64,000 nucleotides of DNA from Escherichia phage UPWr_E2: the sequence record PP418986.1. One strand, given 5' to 3'. The translations under genes and the position numbers were made by a program. The notes under the pieces are model-generated. The model searched no databases. It was not told the origin of the DNA and worked only from the letters and a program-made list of their open reading frames with translations. Within the stretch, counting starts at the first letter, position 1. Each line of letters begins with the position of its first letter. Positions 1-50,673 of the stretch are shown here, in pieces.

Positions 1-735
1 AAGATCGACGGCAGTTACAAACCCTTGATTGGTGATTACACTTCTTCCTTTGAGAATCGGATAATAACAATCCTGTGAAACATAACCATGATCGACGAAT
101 ATTGGTGCTTCTACTCGCCATTGGTTGCCCCAATCACCCGGTTGTCTAGCAATCCATCCAGAACCGTTAATGTGTACACGATCGCGGTTAACGTTAACCA
201 TTGCGATATTTTGTGGATTTAGCGAAATCTCACCATTGTTTGTGATATGTACTGCCGCCTGAGTAGCATAGCTATAAAATGCTAGCGAATTATCAGCACC
301 ACCCTTACCAATATACCAGTTACCACTCCCGTCTACGTCACCACGAATATGCAAAGCATTACCAGCAGTTGTTGATAATACAATAGAATCACCCGGACGT
401 TTAATAATCAATCTACCTTCGGATTCAATTTCACCAAAAAATTTAGTCTTAATTGCACCAGTCGCTAAAGTACGTTCAGTGGAAAAATGAACGCCTTTGC
501 TGTCTTCTAACTGAATAATGTTATCGCGCGCATTATTACTATCACCCCAATGATTAAACCGGAAATAATCACGTGATTGCTTACCACCCGCTTCAAACGT
601 CAGCGTACCTTTACTTAAATTAACATCACCGCTAAAGGTAGCAGCAAGAGAATCACGTTCTAATTTTAAAACGTTAGCACCACTAGTACCACCTAAAGTA
701 ACATCACCAGTTCTCAATTCATAACGGAAAGGTCT
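1..735 (-). CDS. 37: long tail fibre distal subunit gp37, C-terminal coding portion (partial; runs off window start; out of frame with the upstream gp37 ORF because of the 349-bp duplication)
   Basis: minus-strand frame open 735->1 with no stop; re-reads the repeat unit then ...RPGDSIVLSTTAGNALHIRGDVDGSGNWYIGKG...; no ATG inside the repeat unit. Confidence 0.5.
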
Positions 736-1084
736 AATCACCCGGACGTTTAATAATCAATCTACCTTCGGATTCAATTTCACCAAAAAATTTAGTCTTA
801 ATTGCACCAGTCGCTAAAGTACGTTCAGTGGAAAAATGAACGCCTTTGCTGTCTTCTAACTGAATAATGTTATCGCGCGCATTATTACTATCACCCCAAT
901 GATTAAACCGGAAATAATCACGTGATTGCTTACCACCCGCTTCAAACGTCAGCGTACCTTTACTTAAATTAACATCACCGCTAAAGGTAGCAGCAAGAGA
1001 ATCACGTTCTAATTTTAAAACGTTAGCACCACTAGTACCACCTAAAGTAACATCACCAGTTCTCAATTCATAACGGAAAGGTCT
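387..1084. repeat. perfect tandem direct duplication, 2 x 349 bp (387-735 and 736-1084)
   Basis: units identical at every position compared; flanking bases differ (386 vs 735; 737 vs 1086). Confidence 0.95.
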
Positions 1085-2833
1085 ATTTGTATTATAGTTT
1101 CCATTTTGATCATCTTCGTTGGTGGAAAGAATATAAAGATTCTCTCCATAAGTACGGAAAATTGTACCAAAATTTCCGGCATACATACGGAATGCATTAG
1201 ATGAGCGAAATTTAACTTCTGTTTTAAAAGTGGTAGTGTTATTAAGGTTAACAGTAGAGTTAAAATTGGTAGGAGCACCGAAGTTAACAGCACCATTAAA
1301 ATCTTGTTGAGCTGTCCATGTGTGGCAACCATCTTCAAGAACAACACGGCGGACTGTGCAAGTTCTATTTCCAGAATTACCGAACACACTAACGACAAAA
1401 TAACGGTAGTTTGTCTGGGATACAGTACCACGCCAAACCTGAACAGTACGTCCTGTGCTAGTGTGCTCGCTAGGACCAACAGAAAACATAATTAAGTTTC
1501 CGTCAATCGTACCCCAATCCATATTAGCTGGCATGTTCTTTATTTTGTTCAAAGGAACGCTAAACATACTACCAGGAACAAAATCAAATGTTTGCCAGTC
1601 TAACTCTGCTAAGTTAGATTTAATACCACCCATACCCAAAGTAATTGGAAGAGAGTAAGATGTATATACTTCGTTCCATGTACCCCAAACACCGCCGGTA
1701 TATGCACGCTCAAAAATACGATCGCGGGTAGTTGCACCTGTTCCGGCAGTAGTAAATTTTTGGAAAATAGCACCACCAGAAGCACGCTGTTTAACTTCCA
1801 GCAAACCAACAATAACGGTTGGTAAACCTTCACCTGTAGGACAGTTAATAACGGCATCAGTGCCTAAAATGTTATATAACCCAGGAGCTTTAAAATCATT
1901 CAGGTCTCCGTCATAGAAAGTCGCCGGTGTGACATTACCGACTTGTTGCCACGGTCCCCATTTAGGCGCAGATGCATCCCATGCAGCAGCAAGACAGCGA
2001 GTATAAACAACACCAAATCTGGTCGTATATCTCTGTGTGCGAGAATAGTTTCCACCTTCATATACTTCTAAAAGTCCTTGAGCTGACAATCCTTCTTCTG
2101 GGAAATTTCTGTCAAAGGTAGCAATGGAATTTGAACCATTTCGCCACAAACCAAGGTGTTCAGCGCCTCCTAGATCATTAAGATCAATCGTTGTTGACAG
2201 TGGACGAGTACCAGATTGAATATTTCGCCACGCACTCCACGGACCGTTTACTCCGTTCCATGTAGCAGTCAAGGAACGAATATAAACATTTCCGTATCTA
2301 GTTGTATATCTCTGAGTACCAGCAAATTGACCGGCCACAAATACTTCTAGAACACCTACAGCATTTTCTTCTGGAAATTTATTTGCTGGTTGAGCGTTGG
2401 TTGAAGTTGTTTTCGACCAAACTCCAAGATATTCTTCAACAGGCCCATACTCATCTAAATTAGCATCAACAGGTAATTCGCCGTTATTTTTTATAAACGT
2501 TGTGCTATTGACATTTATGTCAGATGGAGTTAGCGTGATATCTTTTGACCCATCAAAGGATATACCATTAATTTTTCGTGCTGTTTTTAATTTCGTTGCA
2601 GTTGCAGCGTTACCTGTTAAATTTCCAATTATGTTTCCATTAACAGTTAAAGAACCATCAATTGTTCCTCCATATTTTAAACCTAATTCTATAACACTAC
2701 CTGAGTCATCTTTTGTGAAAATTGTTTTATCTTTTAAGTTTATAGCCAATTCACCTTCGGCTAATACTGAAGCAGCAGGACGTTGACCTGCAGTTTTGCT
2801 TCTTTTAAATTGTATTTGTTTTAAAGTAGCCAT
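734..2833 (-). CDS. 37: long tail fibre distal subunit gp37, N-terminal ORF (699 aa, ends at a TAG formed at the duplication junction)
   Basis: N-terminus [13 protein letters not shown] typical of T-even gp37; directly downstream of gene 36; body differs from my memory of T4 gp37. Confidence 0.85.
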
Positions 2834-8593: not shown

Positions 8594-8623
8594 GTTTACT
8601 TTAAGATTTAGATAGTATATAAT
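8594..8623 (+). promoter_or_regulatory. sigma70-type early promoter for rnh
   Basis: -35 gtttac (8594-8599), 18-nt spacer, -10 tataat (8618-8623). Confidence 0.5.
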
Positions 8624-13608: not shown

Positions 13609-14637
<1,029 letters not shown>

Positions 14638-14638
<1 letters not shown>

Positions 14639-15186
14639 TGAAACAATACCAATTTTTAATTAAAGATATCCTGGAAAATGGCTACGAAACCGATGACCGA
14701 ACAGGCACAGGAACAATTGCTTTGTTCGGTACTAAATTACGCTGGGATTTAACTAAAGGTTTTCCTGCAGTAACAACTAAGAAGCTCGCCTGGAAAGCTT
14801 GCATTGCTGAGCTGCTTTGGTTTTTATCGGGAAGCACAAATGTCAATGATTTGCGATTAATTCAACATGATTCGTTAATCCAAGGCAAAACAGTTTGGGA
14901 TGAAAATTACGAAAATCAAGCAAAAGATTTAGGATACCATAGCGGTGAACTTGGTCCAATTTATGGAAAACAGTGGCGTGATTTTGGTGGCGTAGACCAA
15001 ATTATAGAAGTTATTGATCGTATTAAAAAATTGCCAAATGATAGGCGTCAAATTGTTTCAGCATGGAATCCAGCTGAACTCAAGCAGATGGCATTACCGC
15101 CTTGTCATATGTTCTATCAGTTTAATGTGCGTAATGGCTATTTGGATTTGCAGTGGTATCAACGATCAGTAGATGTTTTCTTGGGT
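14638..15186 (+). CDS. td: thymidylate synthase, exon 1
   Basis: MKQYQFLIKDILENGYETDDRTGTGT...VDVFLG then in-frame TAA at intron start; 183 codons. Confidence 0.92.
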
Positions 15187-15506
15187 TAATTGAGGCCTGA
15201 GTATAAGGTGACTTATACTTGTAATCTATCTAAACGGGGAACCTCTCTAGTAGACAATCCCGTGCTAAATTGTAGGACTACCCTTTAATAATTTCATCAG
15301 GATTAGTTACTTATCGTGTAAAATCTGATAAATGGAATTGGTTCTACATAAATGCCTAACGACTATCCCTTTGGGGAGTAGGGTCAAGTGACTCGAAACG
15401 ATAGACAACTTGCTTTAACAAGTTGGAGATATAGTCTGATCTGCATGGTGACATGCAGCTGGATATAATTCCGGGGTAAGATTAACGACCTTATCTGAAC
15501 ATAATG
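15187..15506 (+). other. group I self-splicing intron in td, without the I-TevI ORF (320 nt)
   Basis: 5' junction ttgggt|taattgaggcctgagtataagg and 3' junction ...ttatctgaacataatg|ct match the T4 td intron core; only the last ~22 codons of I-TevI remain. Confidence 0.88.
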
Positions 15507-20576: not shown

Positions 20577-22164
<1,588 letters not shown>

Positions 22165-22167
22165 GCT

Positions 22168-22221
22168 GTTTACAAGTCCCTCGTGTTGTGTTATAGTAGT
22201 CTTACTGACATAACATGAGGA
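22168..22221 (+). promoter_or_regulatory. early promoter/leader cassette, copy 1 of an identical 54-bp repeat
   Basis: gtttac -35, tatagt -10, SD gagga; identical to 38098-38151. Confidence 0.55.
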
Positions 22222-22228
22222 CTTTATG

Positions 22229-22732
22229 ATGGATTTGCAGCTTATTACTACTGAAATGGTCGTTGAAGCATACGGTGATACTACAGATGGGATTTCTGTA
22301 TTTAAAGGAAATCGTCGAGTTGGATATATCACCGATCTTAAGAAAGATTTAGCTAAGCAAGTCAAGCGGAAAACGACCATTAAAGAATATCGAAATCGTC
22401 GTCTTGAGCAAGCCCGTGATATGCTTCCTGATGCGGTTGAGGAGATGAAAGTCTTTTTAGAAAATCAGCTTGCGAAATATGATTGCGATGTGTTCATTAA
22501 TCAGACTCAACCTAATGTTCATATTAACAACTGTAAATGCTATATCATCGTTAATCCTTTAACGGGAAAACATCGTCTTGGAATTAGTAATCCAAATCGT
22601 AGCGCATCGGATATGGCAGAAGATGTTGAGGCATGCTTTAAAATTTCTAAATCTCCGGCTGAACATCATATTTTAATTAACGGTCTTTCTCAAGACGATA
22701 TTATAGAGGTTATTAAAACTTTATGCAATTAA
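22229..22732 (+). CDS. alc: Alc-like protein (shuts off transcription of cytosine-containing DNA)
   Basis: 167 aa from second ATG; position between rnlA and spanins/pseT as in T4. Confidence 0.7.
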   Translation: MDLQLITTEMVVEAYGDTTDGISVFKGNRRVGYITDLKKDLAKQVKRKTTIKEYRNRRLEQARDMLPDAVEEMKVFLENQLAKYDCDVFINQTQPNVHINNCKCYIIVNPLTGKHRLGISNPNRSASDMAEDVEACFKISKSPAEHHILINGLSQDDIIEVIKTLCN

Positions 22733-29179: not shown

Positions 29180-29209
29180 GTTTACAGTATGGTTCCTTTG
29201 TGATAGTAT
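29180..29209 (+). promoter_or_regulatory. early promoter
   Basis: -35 gtttac, 18-nt spacer, -10 tagtat preceded by tga. Confidence 0.5.
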
Positions 29210-29236
29210 TATCTTACACAAACAAAGGAGAATAAA

Positions 29237-29560
29237 ATGAAAACGATTAATCTGAACGCTGCAGTTAAAACTAAATGCTTCAATGGTAAATATGATGAAA
29301 CTATGTGGTTCTTAATGGCAGTTGAAGGTGATATTATTGAAGTAGAAACAACAGAAGGTATGGGAACAGATTTCACCTTTACAATTCAAGTTCATAATTT
29401 CTTTACTGGTTGGATTTATGAATTGAATACAGTAATCGTTGGAAAAATTGAACAAAATGAATTAGGTGAATGGTATTATGTTACAGCTCGCCAACGTGCC
29501 GAACGCTTAATTGAGAAGATGAAAAAGTTGGTAAACTTGACATGCAGCATTGGAAAGTAG
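29237..29560 (+). CDS. hypothetical protein (107 aa)
   Basis: SD aaggag upstream. Confidence 0.55.
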   Translation: MKTINLNAAVKTKCFNGKYDETMWFLMAVEGDIIEVETTEGMGTDFTFTIQVHNFFTGWIYELNTVIVGKIEQNELGEWYYVTARQRAERLIEKMKKLVNLTCSIGK

Positions 29561-33745: not shown

Positions 33746-33930
33746 AAGCTTACTTAGAAACAATTGTCATTGCTCAAAAAGAAGGTGGAGATGTTTCTAC
33801 TTCTGTATCACAAGTCATTCTCGAATTTGTAGATGCATACGCTTATAATAAATTTACAGAAACATTTGATGCCTATGAAAAAGGACCAAAGTTTGAAATA
33901 TATCGTACTCTCTTACCACTAGATTACTAA
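33742..33930 (+). CDS. hypothetical protein (62 aa)
   Basis: SD gaggt upstream. Confidence 0.5.
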   Translation: MKAYLETIVIAQKEGGDVSTSVSQVILEFVDAYAYNKFTETFDAYEKGPKFEIYRTLLPLDY

Positions 33931-33955
33931 AGGCCTTCGGGCCTTTAATTTTATA
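33931..33955 (+). terminator. hairpin plus U-rich tract
   Basis: aggcc-ttcg-ggcct then ttaatttta. Confidence 0.55.
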
Positions 33956-33959
33956 AATA
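33952..33959 (+). promoter_or_regulatory. late promoter box TATAAATA upstream of the Alt-like genes
   Basis: exact tataaata 21 nt upstream of ATG 33980. Confidence 0.5.
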
Positions 33960-33979: not shown

Positions 33980-36037
33980 ATGATGGAACTTATTACAGAA
34001 TTATTTGACGAAGATACTACTCTTCCGATTACAAACTTAAATCCAAAGAAGAAAATACCGCAAATTTTTTCAGTTCATGTTGATGATGCAATTGAACAAC
34101 CAGGCTTTCGTTTATGTACCTATACATCTGGAGGTGATACTAATCGCGATTTAAAAATGGGCGATAAAATGATGCATATTGTTCCTTTTACATTAACTGC
34201 TAAAGGTTCAATTGCTAAATTAAAAGGTCTTGGTCCAAGCCCAATTAATTATATCAATTCAGTTTTTACTGTTGCAATGCAAACAATGCGTCAGTATAAA
34301 ATTGATGCTTGTATGCTTCGTATTCTTAAGTCTAAAACCGCTGGTCAAGCTCGACAAATTCAAGTTATTGCTGATAGACTTATCCGTAGTCGTTCAGGTG
34401 GCAGATACGTCCTTCTTAAGGAACTCTGGGATTACGATAAAAAGTATGCATATATTCTTATACATCGCAAAAATGTATCACTAGAAGACATTCCGGGAGT
34501 TCCGGAAATTAGTACTGAGCTCTTTACTAAAGTTGAATCGAAGGTCGGTGATGTTTATATCAATAAAGATACTGGAGCTCAAGTAACTAAAAATGAGGCA
34601 ATTGCAGCATCTATTGCGCAAGAAAATGATAAACGTTCTGACCAAGCTGTAATCGTTAAAGTTAAAATTTCCCGTAGAGCAATTGCGCAAAGTCAATCAT
34701 TGGAATCTTCTAGATTTGAAACGCCGATGTTTCAAAAATTTGAGGCTTCAGCAGCAGAATTAAATAAACCTGCTGACGCTCCTTTAATTTCTGACGCTAA
34801 TGAATTAACTGTTATTTCTACTTCAGGATTTGCATTAGAGAATGCTCTTAGTAGTGTTACAGCTGGAATGGCATTCAGAGAAGCTTCTATAATTCCTGAA
34901 GATAAAGAATCTGATGTTAATGCAGAAATAAAAAATAAAGCTTTAGAAAGATTACGAAAAGAATCTATTACTTCAATAAAAACTTTAGAAACTATTGCTT
35001 CTATAGTTGATGATACTTTAGAAAAATATAAAGGTGCTTGGTTAGAAAGAAACATTAACAAGCATTCGCATTTAAATCAAGATGCTGCGAATGAGTTAGT
35101 ACAAAATTCTTGGAATGCAATAAAAACAAAGATTATTCGAAGAGAATTGCGTGGATATGCTCTTACCGCTGGATGGTCACTACATCCTATAGTCGAAAAT
35201 AAAGATTCATCTAAATACACACCGGCACAAAAACGCGGAATTCGTGAATACGTAAGTTCAGGATATGTAGACATAAATAACGCTCTTTTGGGATTATATA
35301 ATCCAGATGAGCGTACAAGTATTTTGACAGCATCTGATATAGAAAAAGCTATTGATAATTTAGATTCTGCCTTTAAAAATGGTGAACGATTACCAAAAGG
35401 TATTACTTTGTATCGTTCACAACGAATGTTACCTTCAATATATGAAGCACTGGTAAAAAATCGAGTTTTTTATTTTAGAAATTTTGTGTCAACATCATTA
35501 TATCCAAATATTTTTGGTACCTGGATGACTGATTCATCTGTGGGTGTTTTACCAGACGAAAAGCGTTTAAGTGTTTCTATTGATAAAACTGATGAAGGAC
35601 TAGTAAATTCTAGCGATAATTTAGTTGGAATTGGATGGGTTATTACTGGGGCTGATAAAGTCAATGTTGTTTTACCAGGTGGAAGTTTAGCACCTTCAAA
35701 TGAAATGGAAGTCATTTTGCCACGTGGATTAATGGTCAAAGTTAATAAAATAACCGATGCATCTTACAATGATGGAACAGTTAAAACTAACAACAAGCTT
35801 ATTCAAGCTGAAGTTATGACCACAGAAGAACTCACCGAATCGGTAATTTATGACGGTGACCGTCTAATGGAAACCGGCGAAGTAGTTACAATGACAGGTG
35901 ATATTGAAATAGAAGACAGAGTTGATTTTGCATCATTTGTTTCATCAAATGTTAAACAGAAAGTAGAATCATCTCTTGGAATTATTGCGTCTTGTATAGA
36001 TATTGCAAACATGCCTTACAAGTTCGTTCAAGGATAA
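33980..36037 (+). CDS. alt: Alt-like mono-ADP-ribosyltransferase, paralog A
   Basis: 685 aa; Arg (TLYRSQR), STS (FVSTSL) and ExE (EMEVILPRG) ART motifs; N-terminus MELITELFD. Confidence 0.8.
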   Translation: MMELITELFDEDTTLPITNLNPKKKIPQIFSVHVDDAIEQPGFRLCTYTSGGDTNRDLKMGDKMMHIVPFTLTAKGSIAKLKGLGPSPINYINSVFTVAMQTMRQYKIDACMLRILKSKTAGQARQIQVIADRLIRSRSGGRYVLLKELWDYDKKYAYILIHRKNVSLEDIPGVPEISTELFTKVESKVGDVYINKDTGAQVTKNEAIAASIAQENDKRSDQAVIVKVKISRRAIAQSQSLESSRFETPMFQKFEASAAELNKPADAPLISDANELTVISTSGFALENALSSVTAGMAFREASIIPEDKESDVNAEIKNKALERLRKESITSIKTLETIASIVDDTLEKYKGAWLERNINKHSHLNQDAANELVQNSWNAIKTKIIRRELRGYALTAGWSLHPIVENKDSSKYTPAQKRGIREYVSSGYVDINNALLGLYNPDERTSILTASDIEKAIDNLDSAFKNGERLPKGITLYRSQRMLPSIYEALVKNRVFYFRNFVSTSLYPNIFGTWMTDSSVGVLPDEKRLSVSIDKTDEGLVNSSDNLVGIGWVITGADKVNVVLPGGSLAPSNEMEVILPRGLMVKVNKITDASYNDGTVKTNNKLIQAEVMTTEELTESVIYDGDRLMETGEVVTMTGDIEIEDRVDFASFVSSNVKQKVESSLGIIASCIDIANMPYKFVQG

Positions 36038-36040
36038 ATC

Positions 36041-38098
36041 ATGGAACTTATTACAGAATTATTTGACGGCGCTTCGGCGCCGGTTGTTAACTTAAATCCT
36101 AAGCATAAAATACCACAAATTTTTGCTATTCAAGCCGGCGAAGAAAGCGTGCTTCCTGGATTTAGATTTTGTACATACACCTCTGGTGGTGATACGAATA
36201 AAAACGTTAAGCCAGGCGATAAAATGATGCATATCGTAATGATAGGTGTTAATGAGAAACTATCATTAGTTAAGCTTAAAAACTTGGGTGGAAATCCAAT
36301 TGGTGTCATTAATGCCGTTTTTGATACTGCTCTTCAAACAATGAAACAGTATAAAATCGACGCATGCCTATTCCGCGTACTAAAAAGTAAAACAAATGGC
36401 GCTGCTCGTCAAATGCAAGTTATTGCTGACCGTTTAGTACGTACTAAAGGAGCAGGTCGATATGTTCTTTTAAAGGAAATCTGGGACTATGATAAAAAGT
36501 ATGCATATATTATGGTTTACCGTAAAAATGCCAATTTAGAAGACATTCCAGGTGTACCTCCTATTTCAACCGAGTTATTCACAAAAGTTGAATCGAAGGT
36601 CGGTGATGTTTATGTAGATGTTAAAACAGGTAATGCTGTTCCTAAAGCTGTCGCTGTTGCTGCTTCTATTGCTTTAGAAAATGATAAGCGCACGGATCAA
36701 GCGGTTATTCAAAAAACTAAAATTAGTCGTCGATTAGCAGCACAAGCTCAATATTCTACTGTTGATGCTTCACTTCAGGGTGATAGCTTCGCTGCTAAGA
36801 AATATCAAGAGTTTGAATCTAAAGTTCCGGTGTATAAAGCAGAAGGACCAATGAACTCTGGCGTTATTCAAATTGGTTCAAACTTCAGCAAAGGAGCTAT
36901 AGGCGGTATGAGAAGCGCTTCTCGTTTTAAATCTAGTGATTATGAACTCGAAAGCTTCCGAAATCATATTGCATTAGCCCATGCACGTTTACGTGATCCA
37001 TCTATCAAGTTACAGAGCGATATAACATATCAAGGTTCTCAAGAATATTTAAAGAATAAAGAATTCTTTGATTATAAGACTGATAAAATTTTAAGCGATC
37101 TTGCTGATATTAATATTTCTAATAGCTTTGATGTTATTAAGAAAATTATCAATGATTTGGTTAAAGGTTCTAAAGCTACGCCAGATGAAAAGACAGCTAT
37201 TATTCAATTTGTCATGAATGGCATTTATAAATTGATTAATGAATCTGCTGCTCAGGCATATGAATACGCAAGCACTGAAGTAACTCCAAAAGGATTAACT
37301 CAAGCTGAATCTGATGTAATTGAAGATTATTGTGCAGATTCATATGTTGAAATGAACTCGTTCCTTTTGGGTAAACCAGATTCTACCCGTGAAGAATATA
37401 TGGAACGAGCTATTAAACATATTGAGACGCTTGATTCTGCATTCGCTAAAGGTTCAGTTCTTCCTCCAGGAACTACACTTTACCGTGGACAAGAAGTTAC
37501 CTTTAAAACTTTGCGTCATAACATTGAAAATAAAATGTTCTATTTCAAGAACTTCGTATCCACATCGCTTAAACCAAATATCTTCGGTGAGCATGGTAAA
37601 AACTATATGGCTCTAGATGATTCCGGCGCAGTATTTTCTGGTGAAGGAGAAGGTTCCGTTGATGCAGAAGATTTGATGCATATGGGTAGTCATTCTACAT
37701 ATGCTAATGAAGATGCTGAAACTAGCGTGGGTATGGTAATTAAAGGAGCTGAGCGAATCAAAGTTATCGTTCCGGGTCATTTATCAGGATTTCCGTCAGA
37801 AGCTGAAGTTATTCTACCACGTGGAATTTTACTGAAGATTAATAAAGTAAGTACTTACTTTATGAAAGAAACTGCTTATAACAAGTATCTAATCGAAGGT
37901 ACAATCGTTCCTCCTTCTGAACAATTAGAAGAATCAGTATATGATGGCGACCATCTAATGGAAACTGGTGAAGTTCGTCCAATGGCTGGATTTAATCAAT
38001 TCCTTGTAGAAGAATCAAAAGAAGAGGAAAGCGAAGTTTCTCAAATCTTAGCTTCTTTGGTTAACATCAACGGAATGTCTAAAAAGTTCAAAATGTAG
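36041..38098 (+). CDS. Alt-like mono-ADP-ribosyltransferase, paralog B
   Basis: 685 aa; TLYRGQE, FVSTSL, EAEVILPRG motifs; N-terminal ~230 aa similar to paralog A, centre divergent. Confidence 0.8.
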   Translation: MELITELFDGASAPVVNLNPKHKIPQIFAIQAGEESVLPGFRFCTYTSGGDTNKNVKPGDKMMHIVMIGVNEKLSLVKLKNLGGNPIGVINAVFDTALQTMKQYKIDACLFRVLKSKTNGAARQMQVIADRLVRTKGAGRYVLLKEIWDYDKKYAYIMVYRKNANLEDIPGVPPISTELFTKVESKVGDVYVDVKTGNAVPKAVAVAASIALENDKRTDQAVIQKTKISRRLAAQAQYSTVDASLQGDSFAAKKYQEFESKVPVYKAEGPMNSGVIQIGSNFSKGAIGGMRSASRFKSSDYELESFRNHIALAHARLRDPSIKLQSDITYQGSQEYLKNKEFFDYKTDKILSDLADINISNSFDVIKKIINDLVKGSKATPDEKTAIIQFVMNGIYKLINESAAQAYEYASTEVTPKGLTQAESDVIEDYCADSYVEMNSFLLGKPDSTREEYMERAIKHIETLDSAFAKGSVLPPGTTLYRGQEVTFKTLRHNIENKMFYFKNFVSTSLKPNIFGEHGKNYMALDDSGAVFSGEGEGSVDAEDLMHMGSHSTYANEDAETSVGMVIKGAERIKVIVPGHLSGFPSEAEVILPRGILLKINKVSTYFMKETAYNKYLIEGTIVPPSEQLEESVYDGDHLMETGEVRPMAGFNQFLVEESKEEESEVSQILASLVNINGMSKKFKM

Positions 38099-38151
38099 TT
38101 TACAAGTCCCTCGTGTTGTGTTATAGTAGTCTTACTGACATAACATGAGGA
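38098..38151 (+). promoter_or_regulatory. early promoter/leader cassette, copy 2 of the identical 54-bp repeat
   Basis: identical to 22168-22221. Confidence 0.55.
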
Positions 38152-38158
38152 ACACAAA

Positions 38159-38449
38159 ATGAAATCTTCTTTGCGCTTTTTAGGTCAAGAACTTGTAGTT
38201 GAAGGAGTTATTCCTGCTGATAATGCTTTTAATGAAGCAGTTTACGATGAATTTATCAAAATTTTTGGAACAGATAAAAAGTTCGGAATTTTTCCTTCTG
38301 AAAATTTTTCAAAGCCAGAACAGACTGAAAGTATTTTCCAAGGTGTAGTAACAGGTAAATTTGAGTCAGAAGCTCCGGTAAAAATTGAAGTTTATATTGA
38401 AGACAGTTTAGTTGCTTCAGTTTCTGCTTTCATTTCATTCCGTAAATAA
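38159..38449 (+). CDS. hypothetical protein (96 aa)
   Basis: SD gagga upstream. Confidence 0.55.
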   Translation: MKSSLRFLGQELVVEGVIPADNAFNEAVYDEFIKIFGTDKKFGIFPSENFSKPEQTESIFQGVVTGKFESEAPVKIEVYIEDSLVASVSAFISFRK

Positions 38450-38454
38450 AAATA

Positions 38455-38474
38455 TGGGGACCGAAAGGTCCCCA
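38455..38474. terminator. bidirectional hairpin between convergent genes
   Basis: tggggacc-gaaa-ggtcccca with T-rich flanks on both strands. Confidence 0.6.
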
Positions 38475-38477
38475 TTG

Positions 38478-39443
38478 TTATATTGCTCCTAATATTTTAC
38501 TCTGCGAATTGACAATTCCTGTCATAGTATTAATATTTGAAATGCTTCCTGCAGTTCCCCCTAATCTACTAAGTCGTGAAAGCGAATTAGATAGTCCAGT
38601 AACACCTCCACTATTTCCGAGAACGCTTTGAATACCATTTATAGTAGCAGATTCAAGCCATTCAATGGCAGCTTGTCTATCAACTGCTCCAGCCTGCATC
38701 ACTCTATACGCAAAAGTAACATCAAATGTAGTTATTTGGTTATCTCCATCATATGATAACTCAGGAGCGCTTACGGACACTGGAATGCATCCAGTGAACA
38801 TCACCGCAGTATGTGGTAATCCATTGCGAGAATGAAGATTAACCTGAATATCTGCCTCGACATCTTGCGGCAAAGCACGCAATCCAGTTACTGGGTCTTG
38901 AACAGCGTTAACCCAGTCTTGCATTGCACGATAGTTACAAGCTTCTGAATCCATTCTGAATGAAATAACCAAAGGGTCTAATTCTCTCCCAGTTATACGA
39001 ATATTAGGAGAATTATAGTTCCAGTCAGTTTCATAGGATAATCTATTCTCTGGCATTTTTACAGAGTATATCATCAATCCAGATGAGTTATATGCCATGT
39101 TAAAGAAGTCAATTAAATATGTACCAACTGTAAATGAGCCTAATAAACTTTGAACTGTACGTTGACTCATGGCACCAATAAGATATTTACTAACCCCTGA
39201 TTTTCTTATCAGTTTTTGTGTGCCAGCTGTAATTAGCGTAGTAATTCCCTGATTAATATCGCCTTGAGTTAATCCTAACCAATCTGAATTTAGGCCCAAG
39301 TTATTATAAGAAAAGTTGCTAATTGAACTTATCAACGAAGAGCTTTTAGTTGATGGAGTTGTAGCAAAAACACAGCTGAACATATTATTACGTTGGAAAT
39401 CTGCGTTTATTGCTTGATTATTAAATTCCTCTAAAGAATACAT
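38478..39443 (-). CDS. 54: baseplate tail tube initiator gp54
   Basis: 321 aa; MYSLEEFNNQAINADFQRNNMFSCVFATTP... matches T4 gp54. Confidence 0.92.
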   Translation of the reverse strand: MYSLEEFNNQAINADFQRNNMFSCVFATTPSTKSSSLISSISNFSYNNLGLNSDWLGLTQGDINQGITTLITAGTQKLIRKSGVSKYLIGAMSQRTVQSLLGSFTVGTYLIDFFNMAYNSSGLMIYSVKMPENRLSYETDWNYNSPNIRITGRELDPLVISFRMDSEACNYRAMQDWVNAVQDPVTGLRALPQDVEADIQVNLHSRNGLPHTAVMFTGCIPVSVSAPELSYDGDNQITTFDVTFAYRVMQAGAVDRQAAIEWLESATINGIQSVLGNSGGVTGLSNSLSRLSRLGGTAGSISNINTMTGIVNSQSKILGAI

Positions 39444-49255: not shown

Positions 49256-50673
49256 ATGGCTTTTACAGTTGATATAACTCCTAAAACACCGACAGGGGTT
49301 ATTGATGAAACTAAGCAGTTTACTGCTACACCCAGTGGTGAAACTGGAGGCGGAACTATTACATATGCTTGGACTGTAGATGATGCTCCACAAGATGGAG
49401 CTGAAGCAACTTTTGATTATGTATTAAAAGGACCTGCTGGACAAAAGACTATTAAAGTAGTTGCAACAAATACAGTTCCAGATACTGATGCTGAAACAGC
49501 AGAAGCTACTACAACTATCACAGTTCAAAATAAGACACAAACGACCACCTTAGCTGTAACTCCTAATAGCCCTGACGCTGGAGTAATTGGAACAGCTGTT
49601 CAATTTACTGCTGCCTTAGATTCGCAGCCACCAGGCGCATCGGCTACGTATCAATGGTACGTTGACGGTTCTCCTGCGGGCGAAGCAACTTCTGCTACAT
49701 TCAATTACACTCCTGACACAAGCGGAGTTAAAAAATCAAGTGTGTAGCTCAAGTAACCGCGACAGATTATGATACAAAGGAAGTTACTTCGAATGAAGTA
49801 TCACTGACTGTTAATAAAAAGGAGCAGACAACTACTTTGGCAGTAACTCCTGATAGTCCTCCAGCGGGAGTAATCGGAACCCCAGTTCAATTTACTGCTG
49901 CCTTAGCTTCTCAACCTGATGGAGCGTCTGCTACGTATCAGTGGTATGTAGATGATTCACAAGTTGGTGGAGAAACTAACTCTACATTTAGCTATACTCC
50001 AACTACAAGTGGAGTAAAAAGAATTAAATGCGTAGCCCAAGTAACTGCTGAAAATTACAATGAAAAGGAAGTTACTTCTAATGAAGTATCATTGACAGTT
50101 AATAAGAAGACAATGAATCCACAGGTTACATTGACTCCTCCTTCTATTAATGTTCAGCAAGATGCTTCGGCTACATTTACGGCTAATGTTACGGGTGCTC
50201 CAGAAGAAGCACAAATTACTTACTCATGGAAGAAAGATTCTTCTCCTGTAGAAGGGTCAACTAACGTATATACTGTCGATACCTCATCTGTTGGAAGTCA
50301 AACTATTGAAGTTACTGCTGTCGTTACTGCAACTGATTACGATAGCAAAACTATTACAGCAGAAGGTCAAGTTCAGGTAACTGATAAAGTTGCTCCAGAA
50401 CCAGAAGGTGAACTACCTTATGTTCATCCTCTTCCACATCGTACTTCAGCTTATATCTGGTGCGGTTGGTGGGTTATGGATGAAATCCAAAAAATGACCG
50501 AAGAAGGTAAAGATTGGAAAACTGACGACCCAGATAGTAAATATTACCTACATCGTTACACTCTTCAGAAGATGATGAAAGACTATCCAGAAGTTGATGT
50601 TCAAGAATCGCGTAATGGATACATCATTCATAAAACTGCTTTAGAAACTGGTATCATCTATACCTATCCATAA
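49256..50673 (+). CDS. hoc: Hoc outer capsid decoration protein, interrupted by a -1 frameshift in an A6 run (49730-49735); four Ig-like domains
   Basis: ORF 49256-49747 and ORF 49837-50673 together read as Hoc if one A is added to the run; C-terminal ...YVHPLPHRTSAYIWCGWWVMDEIQK... matches T4 Hoc. Confidence 0.8.

Follow-up and report, generated by a model that had tools for sequence, protein, structure and literature searches.

What does an exact 54-bp repeat do in front of two different genes of a T4-like phage, and how did it come to stand there twice? The question arises from Escherichia phage UPWr_E2 (sequence record PP418986.1), of which a stretch of 64,000 nucleotides (nt), referred to here as the window, was analyzed. 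The window carries two plus-strand copies of the 54-mer GTTTACAAGTCCCTCGTGTTGTGTTATAGTAGTCTTACTGACATAACATGAGGA, at 22168-22221 upstream of alc (copy 1) and at 38098-38151 upstream of alt.-3 (copy 2). A preliminary description of this DNA had taken the repeat for a promoter/leader cassette and had suggested that it was a mobile regulatory cassette rather than part of a large segmental duplication. We propose, with moderate confidence, that the 54-mer is an immediate-early promoter cassette of the promoter-early stem-loop (PeSL) class that carries a translational gate set by the origin of the transcript, and that the alc version was copied to alt.-3.

Promoter and predicted hairpin of the 54-bp cassette

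The promoter identity of the cassette is well supported. The 17-nt spacer of the copy 2 promoter ends in TGn (38119-38121), and at copy 1, as at copy 2, 7 nt separate the Shine-Dalgarno (SD) sequence GAGGA from the ATG (coordinates of the elements are collected in Table 1). The promoter departs from the consensus of the PST and T4 PeSLs, TTTACW-N17-TAYWAT, in the fifth base of TATAGT and agrees with it at the remaining 11 of the 12 positions. The first 30 nt of the 54-mer are annotated as a promoter by one GenBank depositor (phage Lutter). We also searched the cassette for the late-promoter motif TATAAATA, which is absent from it; the embedded promoter is of the early sigma-70 type. The reading of the repeat as a promoter/leader cassette was thus borne out by a -35 box, an extended -10 box and an SD inside the 54 bp, by the depositor's annotation and by the early class of the downstream genes in T4. 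The anatomy given in the preliminary description was correct as far as promoter and leader are concerned; it overlooked what we regard as the main feature, an 18-bp hairpin that buries the SD.

The sense RNA of the 54-mer was predicted to fold into this hairpin at -22 kcal/mol (z -5.4), and none of 200 shuffled sequences was equally stable. The 5' arm (38109-38122) consists of the promoter spacer and the first base of the -10 box, and the 3' arm (38137-38150) of the leader and the GAGG of the SD. An inner stem (38125-38128 with 38133-38136) closes a loop at 38129-38132, and the -10 box is distributed over bulge, inner stem and loop. In RNA that reads through from upstream, the predicted fold pairs the SD of alt.-3 with CCUC of the spacer. 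The antisense strand of the 54-mer folds less stably (-12.8 kcal/mol, z -2.3) because three of the hairpin pairs are G.U. A DNA cruciform and an antisense RNA were considered and are disfavored by this strand asymmetry, which in the folding model points to a structure belonging to the plus-strand RNA rather than to a DNA cruciform. RNA made from the cassette's own promoter would be unable to form the hairpin, since the predicted start, placed 7 nt past the -10 box and thus near 38134 at copy 2, lies 3' of the whole 5' arm.

We compared the two kinds of RNA by their opening cost, defined as the ensemble cost of making positions -14 to +3 single-stranded in the read-through and in the promoter-initiated transcript. 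The mean unpaired probability of the SD was misleading at alt.-3, where a local hairpin of -2.2 kcal/mol dominates the ensemble of the short RNA, and opening energies were used instead. At copy 2 the ribosome site of alt.-3 was predicted to cost 14.5 kcal/mol to open in the read-through RNA versus 4.7 kcal/mol in the promoter-initiated one; at copy 1 (alc) the values were 16.3 and 3.7 kcal/mol. The difference recurred in 15 of 18 alc cassettes (8-18 kcal/mol read-through versus 1-4 promoter-initiated) and at the alt.-3 loci of Tequatrovirus (14.5-17 kcal/mol versus about 4.6). In nine of the ten alt.-3 cassettes sampled outside Tequatrovirus the two costs were about 3-7 kcal/mol and 2-5 kcal/mol, respectively.

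The cassette hairpin was also examined for other known activities. No run of U follows it on the 3' side at either copy or in other genera (the sequence past the stem is ACACAAAAUG at copy 2 and CUUUAUGAUG at copy 1), and a terminator scan of the window called it at neither copy. Lacking a U-run, the hairpin is unlikely to be an intrinsic terminator. An Rfam search of 37900-38500 gave sub-threshold chance matches only, with no family at its gathering score. A RegB/RegA element was likewise sought at the cassette; the leader contains no GGAG and no Rfam family matched.

A mini open reading frame (ORF) of the form AUG AGG nnn nnn nnA UGA was observed across the SD at 38145-38162 and at 22215-22232. 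Its start codon lies within cAUGAGGA and its stop codon in the AUGA of the main start; both copies have it, and so does alt.-3 in five other genera. Probably it arises incidentally from the AUGAGGA sequence, the 7-nt spacing and the A at +4.

Conservation of the hairpin at alc

Our comparison set comprised the 95 nt upstream of alc and alt.-3 at 24 loci from Tequatrovirus and about 15 other genera. Scans of IMG/VR with the Alc and Alt.-3 proteins yielded six and five loci, respectively, all close Tequatrovirus relatives, which were used for variation within the genus; distant relatives were recovered by tblastn against a phage collection. An alc promoter whose spacer pairs with its own SD was found in Tequatro-, Dhaka-, Marfa-, Kanagawa-, Gelderland-, Roskilde-, Jiaoda-, Braga- and Winklervirus. 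The sequences of the two arms vary by genus (UCUCCUCAUG/CAUGAGGAGA, CCUCGUUUGUU/AACAAACGAGG, UCUCCGUUUAGUU/AACUAAACGGAGA, ACCUCUCAUUUUU/GAAAAUGAGAGGU), and the alc cassettes with the hairpin in these genera gave fold z-scores of -3.1 to -5.8.

A test that needs no alignment combined the spacer of one genus with the leaders of all genera in turn. Cognate pairs reached a mean of -19.8 kcal/mol versus -10.5 kcal/mol for non-cognate pairs, the cognate partner was the best in every row and in every column except that of Roskildevirus, and none of 100,000 permutations matched this result. A model-fitted alignment of 20 cassettes gave 71.8% paired cells versus 64.3% in shuffles and a covariation score of 0.31 versus 0.21 (0 of 500 shuffles reached either value), the covariation score being clearly above all slid controls; nine of the 14 pairs had changes on both sides. 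The alignment made with model R1 is ungapped and mis-registers some genera, and these column-wise figures are therefore conservative. In the MAFFT alignment (A1) the helices of different genera fell into different registers, and we placed more weight on the alignment-free duplex test. On these predicted folds, the conservation and covariation of the hairpin at alc in at least nine genera are well supported. The alt.-3 copies of Tequatrovirus, for their part, contain a full compensatory series from C-G through U.G to U-A. The alc copy of T4 is identical to the window 54-mer, and its alt.-3 copy is one base off, by the change from U.G to U-A.

Fixation and origin of the second copy

The two copies are 100% identical, as had been claimed, and the flanks diverge directly outside them on both sides. 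To the left of GTTTAC stands aagct at copy 1 and atgta at copy 2; to the right of GAGGA, ctttatg follows at copy 1 and acacaaa at copy 2. Because the first outside base differs on both sides, the repeat is exactly 54 bp long and represents a short patch and no larger duplication, in keeping with the preliminary description. There is no third copy in the window with up to three mismatches allowed (chance expectation 0). Copy 1 begins 3 nt past the TAA of rnlA. The first base of copy 2 is the G of the TAG stop of the 685-amino acid (aa) ORF at 36041-38098, and its end lies 7 nt 5' of the alt.-3 ATG; its reported position between the stop of an Alt-like paralog and a 96-aa ORF is accurate, the ORF being T4 alt.-3.

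In a blastn search, 499 phage records matched the 54-mer at 997 places in all, with two per genome and identities of 94-100% (T4, T6 and PST included), and the matches were Tequatrovirus-type phages without exception. Recurrence of the pair in 499 records shows that it is not an assembly artefact of one genome. Over 1 kb, the two loci match Yersinia phage PYps55T at 100% identity and hundreds of phages of the T4 genus at 95-99%. The window belongs to Tequatrovirus, and the pair is a fixed feature of this genus, at the same two positions in about 500 genomes. When the flanking genes were compared, the genera differed in how many alt paralogs lie upstream of copy 2, no indel end-point fell at the cassette and both loci were fixed in the 499 genomes. 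The suggestion of a mobile regulatory cassette therefore held in part. The 54-mer fits the published PeSL class (PMC2839356, PMC4122927), for which that phrase is the title concept, but current mobility is not seen, since the cassette keeps the same two positions in about 500 Tequatrovirus genomes and other genera also have a promoter at both loci.

The promoters at alt.-3 outside Tequatrovirus are of a different type, with a palindrome inside the spacer and an open SD, in nine of the ten sampled cassettes (seven genera and one unplaced phage). The spacer palindrome ACACCACAAGGAUGUGG occurs in Dhaka-, Marfa- and Kagamiyamavirus. CCACA-N4-TGTGG and its variants were seen wholly inside the 17-nt alt.-3 spacer in these seven genera and the unplaced phage, at loci of our set such as L014 (19943-20003), L016 (19940-20003), L031 and L035. 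Kanagawavirus is a partial exception, in which the SD of alt.-3 is buried by a differently placed hairpin; in IME523 of this genus (L020, 19941-20003) the opening cost was 14.7 versus 1.7 kcal/mol. Ungapped spacer identity failed to separate alc-type from alt.-3-type promoters, and the classification was made by structure.

Motifs common to both promoter types, GTTTACAA on the left and AACAUGAGGA on the right, bound the 54-bp tract and are also seen in other genera. We infer from the comparison that the alc cassette overwrote a pre-existing alt.-3 promoter once, in the Tequatrovirus ancestor. The direction from alc to alt.-3 follows by parsimony, because at alc the anti-SD spacer is conserved and the alt.-3 promoters of other genera differ from it. 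The event could have been a short ectopic gene conversion or a template switch with its ends at the shared GTTTACAA and AACAUGAGGA microhomology, after which the two copies would have drifted independently under constraint. The tract bounds agree with the zones of exchange described for PeSLs, which fall in the interval from the -10 box to the SD or ATG. In Dhakavirus VR5, the alc and alt.-3 loci share an identical 3' half through the ATG, probably from an independent event. Among ten Tequatrovirus genomes the two copies were 0-5 positions apart. Concerted evolution within the genus was considered and found unsupported, with 2.3 differences within genomes versus 2.6 between genomes (p 0.11).

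Gene context, read-through and timing

The genes and signals around the two copies are listed in Table 1. The window holds a tandem full-length pair of alt genes upstream of copy 2. In T4 the second alt paralog is reduced to the remnants alt.-1 and alt.-2, the altB deletion being internal to the gene; Mosigvirus and Marfavirus have one alt copy and Dhakavirus has two. A hairpin terminator at 33928-33947 is followed by the late motif TATAAATA at 33952-33959, forming a compact terminator-promoter junction on the 'early' strand. The terminator scan found no plus-strand terminator-like site between this motif and 38454. Late alt transcripts should therefore cross copy 2, and read-through RNA is expected across both copies from the arrangement of the genes.

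Table 1. Coordinates of the cassette elements, surrounding genes and signals in the window
Feature	Position	Strand	Remarks
Copy 1 of cassette	22168..22221	+	Upstream of alc, in the 64-bp rnlA-alc gap
Copy 1, -35 box	22169-22174	+	
Copy 1, -10 box	22192-22197	+	
Copy 1, RNA hairpin	22179-22220	+	
Copy 1, Shine-Dalgarno	22217-22221	+	
Copy 2 of cassette	38098..38151	+	Upstream of alt.-3; exact repeat; in all sampled Tequatrovirus genomes
Copy 2, sigma-70-type T4 early promoter	38099..38127	+	Promoter scan, 10/12 matches with TG
Copy 2, -35 box TTTACA	38099-38104	+	
Copy 2, -10 box TATAGT	38122-38127	+	
Copy 2, RNA hairpin	38109..38150	+	Predicted fold; encloses -10 box
Copy 2, Shine-Dalgarno GAGGA of alt.-3	38147..38151	+	7 nt 5' of ATG
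rnlA (RNA ligase 1, gp63)	21040..22164	+	Upstream of copy 1
alc (inhibitor of host transcription)	22229..22732	+	Pfam PF17527, E 4e-91; start as in T4 annotation
T4 late promoter motif TATAAATA	33952..33959	+	20 nt 5' of first alt gene
First Alt-like ADP-ribosyltransferase paralog	33980-36037	+	685 aa
Second Alt-like ADP-ribosyltransferase paralog (altB)	36041..38098	+	685 aa, ADP-ribosyltransferase domain
alt.-3 (DUF5498, 96 aa)	38159..38449	+	Pfam PF17602, E 5e-64; T4 annotation
Bidirectional terminator hairpin, alt.-3/gene 54	38454..38475	.	Terminator scan
Third early-promoter cassette	29180..29239	+	Upstream of 107-aa ORF starting at 29237; 47 bits with model R1

Time-course omics of T4 (PMC9697503) classes both alc and alt.-3 as early in RNA and in protein. 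In the same data alt is late in RNA and protein, rnlA is early in RNA and late in protein, and alt.-1 and alt.-2 are middle in RNA with the protein not classified (NA). These classes fit active early promoters in both cassettes, and they fit a silent read-through RNA without proving it.

Other early-promoter cassettes and features of the window

The third early-promoter cassette in Table 1 is unlike the 54-mer in sequence and alike in design. Its spacer pairs with the SD (CCUUUG/CAAAGG), and its opening cost was predicted at 10.1 kcal/mol in read-through RNA versus 0.5 kcal/mol in its own transcript. It is one of six other early-promoter cassettes in the window, all six of which have an inverted repeat around the -10 box; the SD is buried at 29180 alone. 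The GTTTAC-type early promoters at 8595, 12486, 13218, 25489 and 29572 (plus strand) enclose the -10 box in an inverted repeat (for example GGGTAGTAG...CTATTACCC, GGTAGAG...CTCTACC and GGTACAGG...CCTGTACC), leave the SD free and have the leader motif CTTACACAAAC in common. Outside the window, an early-promoter cassette of Salmonella phage Melville (L021, 14428-14498) was predicted to bury its SD in a hairpin of -21.4 kcal/mol. Together with alt.-3 of Kanagawavirus, the Melville cassette at 14428 suggests, on predicted folds, that the SD-burying design recurs across the subfamily.

Three further features of the window were recorded. An exact tandem duplication at 387-1035 (copies 387-686 and 736-1035, 349-bp period) lies in the distal long-tail-fibre gene (gp37-like ORF 734..2833, minus strand), and the 349-bp unit is single in close relatives, in whose records an 801-nt query covers 452 nt. 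The period is not divisible by 3 and the ORF ends at the junction, which leaves two readings, a truncated fibre gene or an artefact of assembly. A group I intron (Rfam RF00028, 66.9 bits) is located at 15177-15458 (plus strand) in the td/nrd region and was the sole Rfam match window-wide. Diverged tandem repeats of about 288 nt, with 72-80% identity, occupy 49520-50109.

Discussion

We propose that the spacer of the cassette promoter acts as an anti-SD. In plus-strand RNA entering from upstream, the spacer sequence CCCUCGUGUUGUGU would pair with the leader and SD, ACAUAACAUGAGG, and the resulting 18-bp hairpin would enclose the -10 box and hide the SD. RNA from the cassette's own promoter would start about 7 nt past the -10 box, within the loop or 3' half of the structure; it would have no 5' arm and its SD would be free. 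The genes alc and alt.-3 would then be translated from their own early promoter only, tying their synthesis to the early period. The transcripts silenced by the hairpin would be those of rnlA and the genes upstream of it at copy 1 and the late alt RNA at copy 2. That read-through RNA is translationally silent is what we infer from the modeled opening costs.

Regulatory cassettes of this general kind were described in T4-type phages as PeSLs (Arbiol et al. 2010, PMC2839356; Comeau et al. 2014, PMC4122927). The 54-mer shares with them a sigma-70-like early promoter with a box spacing of about 17 nt, a stem-loop that overlaps the -10 box, an SD and start codon at the 3' end, an AT-rich upstream region, an intergenic position between genes on the same strand, several similar copies per genome and short-patch exchange between copies. 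It is unlike them in that both copies are fixed in position genus-wide, outside the small-ORF hyperplastic clusters and at no indel end-point, and in that the SD is always part of the stem-loop, which no U-run follows. In the PeSL papers the stem-loop is taken for a terminator and translation does not come up; neither 'ribosome' nor 'translation' occurs as a word in PMC2839356. A stable hairpin at the end of the upstream gene is a likeness to intrinsic terminators; unlike these, the cassette lacks a U-tract, its stem is rich in AU and GU and its 3' arm is a ribosome binding site.

A closer functional parallel is found in the T4 genes e (lysozyme), soc, 49 and I-TevI, for which SD-sequestering hairpins with a promoter inside are established (PMC3014915). 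As in these genes, the predicted fold pairs the SD in transcripts that start upstream (14.5-16.3 kcal/mol to open), and with the start predicted here the transcript of the embedded promoter would lack the 5' strand of the helix. Expression in one temporal class, which characterizes e, soc, 49 and I-TevI, would likewise result for the cassette under the proposed mechanism. Their promoters are late (TATAAATA) and it is early and middle RNA that is silenced, whereas the cassette promoter is of the early sigma-70 type and the logic would be reversed, to early-only expression. The 5' arm of the cassette is also the promoter spacer itself, unlike that of e, soc, 49 and I-TevI. By analogy, the cassette may work like this family without being a strict member of it, as the late promoter is missing. 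In the literature searched we found no description of an SD hairpin embedded in an early promoter, and absence there is no proof of novelty.

An ordinary PeSL might account for the same structure. The stem-loop would be a terminator or attenuator that insulates the early gene, the cassette would mainly be a recombination linker for module shuffling, and the SD pairing would be incidental. RB49 and phi1 provide precedents, as termination was demonstrated there at PeSL stem-loops located between the -35 and -10 boxes or covering the -10 box; an inverted repeat surrounds the -10 box at every early promoter of the window, and immediately upstream of copy 2 the alt paralogs vary in number. We consider this explanation unlikely, however, given a hairpin without a U-run at either copy or in other genera that the terminator scan did not call, and given a 3' arm that at alc is always the SD, with co-varying partners in nine genera, which a terminator would not need. 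Nor is module shuffling apparent at loci that are fixed in about 500 genomes, with the cassette at no indel end-point and the T4 loss of altB internal to the gene. The identity of the copies raises the separate possibility that it is kept by a shared trans-acting input, a protein or RNA that binds the shared sequence or hairpin and co-regulates alc and alt.-3, or by continuing gene conversion. The copies are indeed 100% identical here and in other genomes and one base apart in T4, and the shared 3' half in Dhakavirus VR5 suggests a second, independent conversion. Against this, copies from the same genome were no closer than copies from different ones (2.3 versus 2.6 differences, p 0.11; 0-5 differences in ten Tequatrovirus genomes), the two promoter types of other genera indicate that common regulation is not ancestral, and no known T4 operator motif is present (no RegB GGAG site, no Rfam family); we regard it as improbable. 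Still further from likely, to our judgment, is translational coupling, by which alc and alt.-3 on a polycistronic RNA would need a ribosome terminating at the upstream stop to melt the base of the stem. The geometry at first invites it, as the upstream stop lies only 11-14 nt 5' of the anti-SD (the altB TAG overlaps the cassette and the rnlA TAA stands 3 nt before it) and the SD is paired with the outer end of the 5' arm. Stalling at either stop would nevertheless bring a ribosome to the first base pair of the 18-bp stem at most, and the T4 timing, with alt late and alt.-3 early, and the RnlA protein late and Alc early, is the opposite of what coupling predicts.

Several observations weigh against a translational gate at both loci and its copying from alc to alt.-3. 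The transcription start near 38134 was placed by a spacing rule, and in the promoter-initiated alt.-3 RNA (38134-38175) a weak local SD hairpin of -2.2 kcal/mol is predicted to remain. At alc, Mosigvirus is without the canonical spacer-SD hairpin, yet its opening cost was 8.8 versus 0.8 kcal/mol; Providencia phage PSTCR6 and the Acinetobacter and Aeromonas relatives are exceptions with no difference in opening cost between the two RNAs, so the gate would be dispensable in some lineages. Within Tequatrovirus, six of 14 changes at paired positions break a pair, one of them turning the -10 box into TATAAT, a better -10. The direction of conversion rests on parsimony in an unrooted comparison of ten non-Tequatrovirus alt.-3 loci. 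The hairpin could also, or instead, act as an attenuator or as a stabilizer of RNA 3' ends, roles put forward in the PeSL papers.

For annotators, the results mean that the pair is not to be read as a mobile element or a mis-assembly. For engineers who reuse T4 early promoters, they highlight that a spacer may silence the downstream SD in read-through contexts. The alc/alt.-3 pair provides a clean, datable case of a regulatory module copied between genes, with a patch of about 36-54 bp. More broadly, early promoters of the T4 subfamily may be able to carry an anti-SD in the spacer, by which translation would be set by the start of the mRNA; such a device would be ancient at alc, recurrent elsewhere and copyable by microhomology-bounded conversion. 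We hold this generalization to be evenly balanced between right and wrong. If true, the stem-loops called PeSLs would gain a function besides termination. T4 is the reference system for timed phage gene expression, and reviews describe the shut-off of early protein synthesis as incompletely explained (PMC3014915, PMC2988021). The proposed gate, if it holds, would help explain why the synthesis of some early proteins stops after the early promoters are shut off despite persisting read-through RNA, and an SD usable on promoter-proximal early transcripts only would be a simple cis-acting share in that shut-off.

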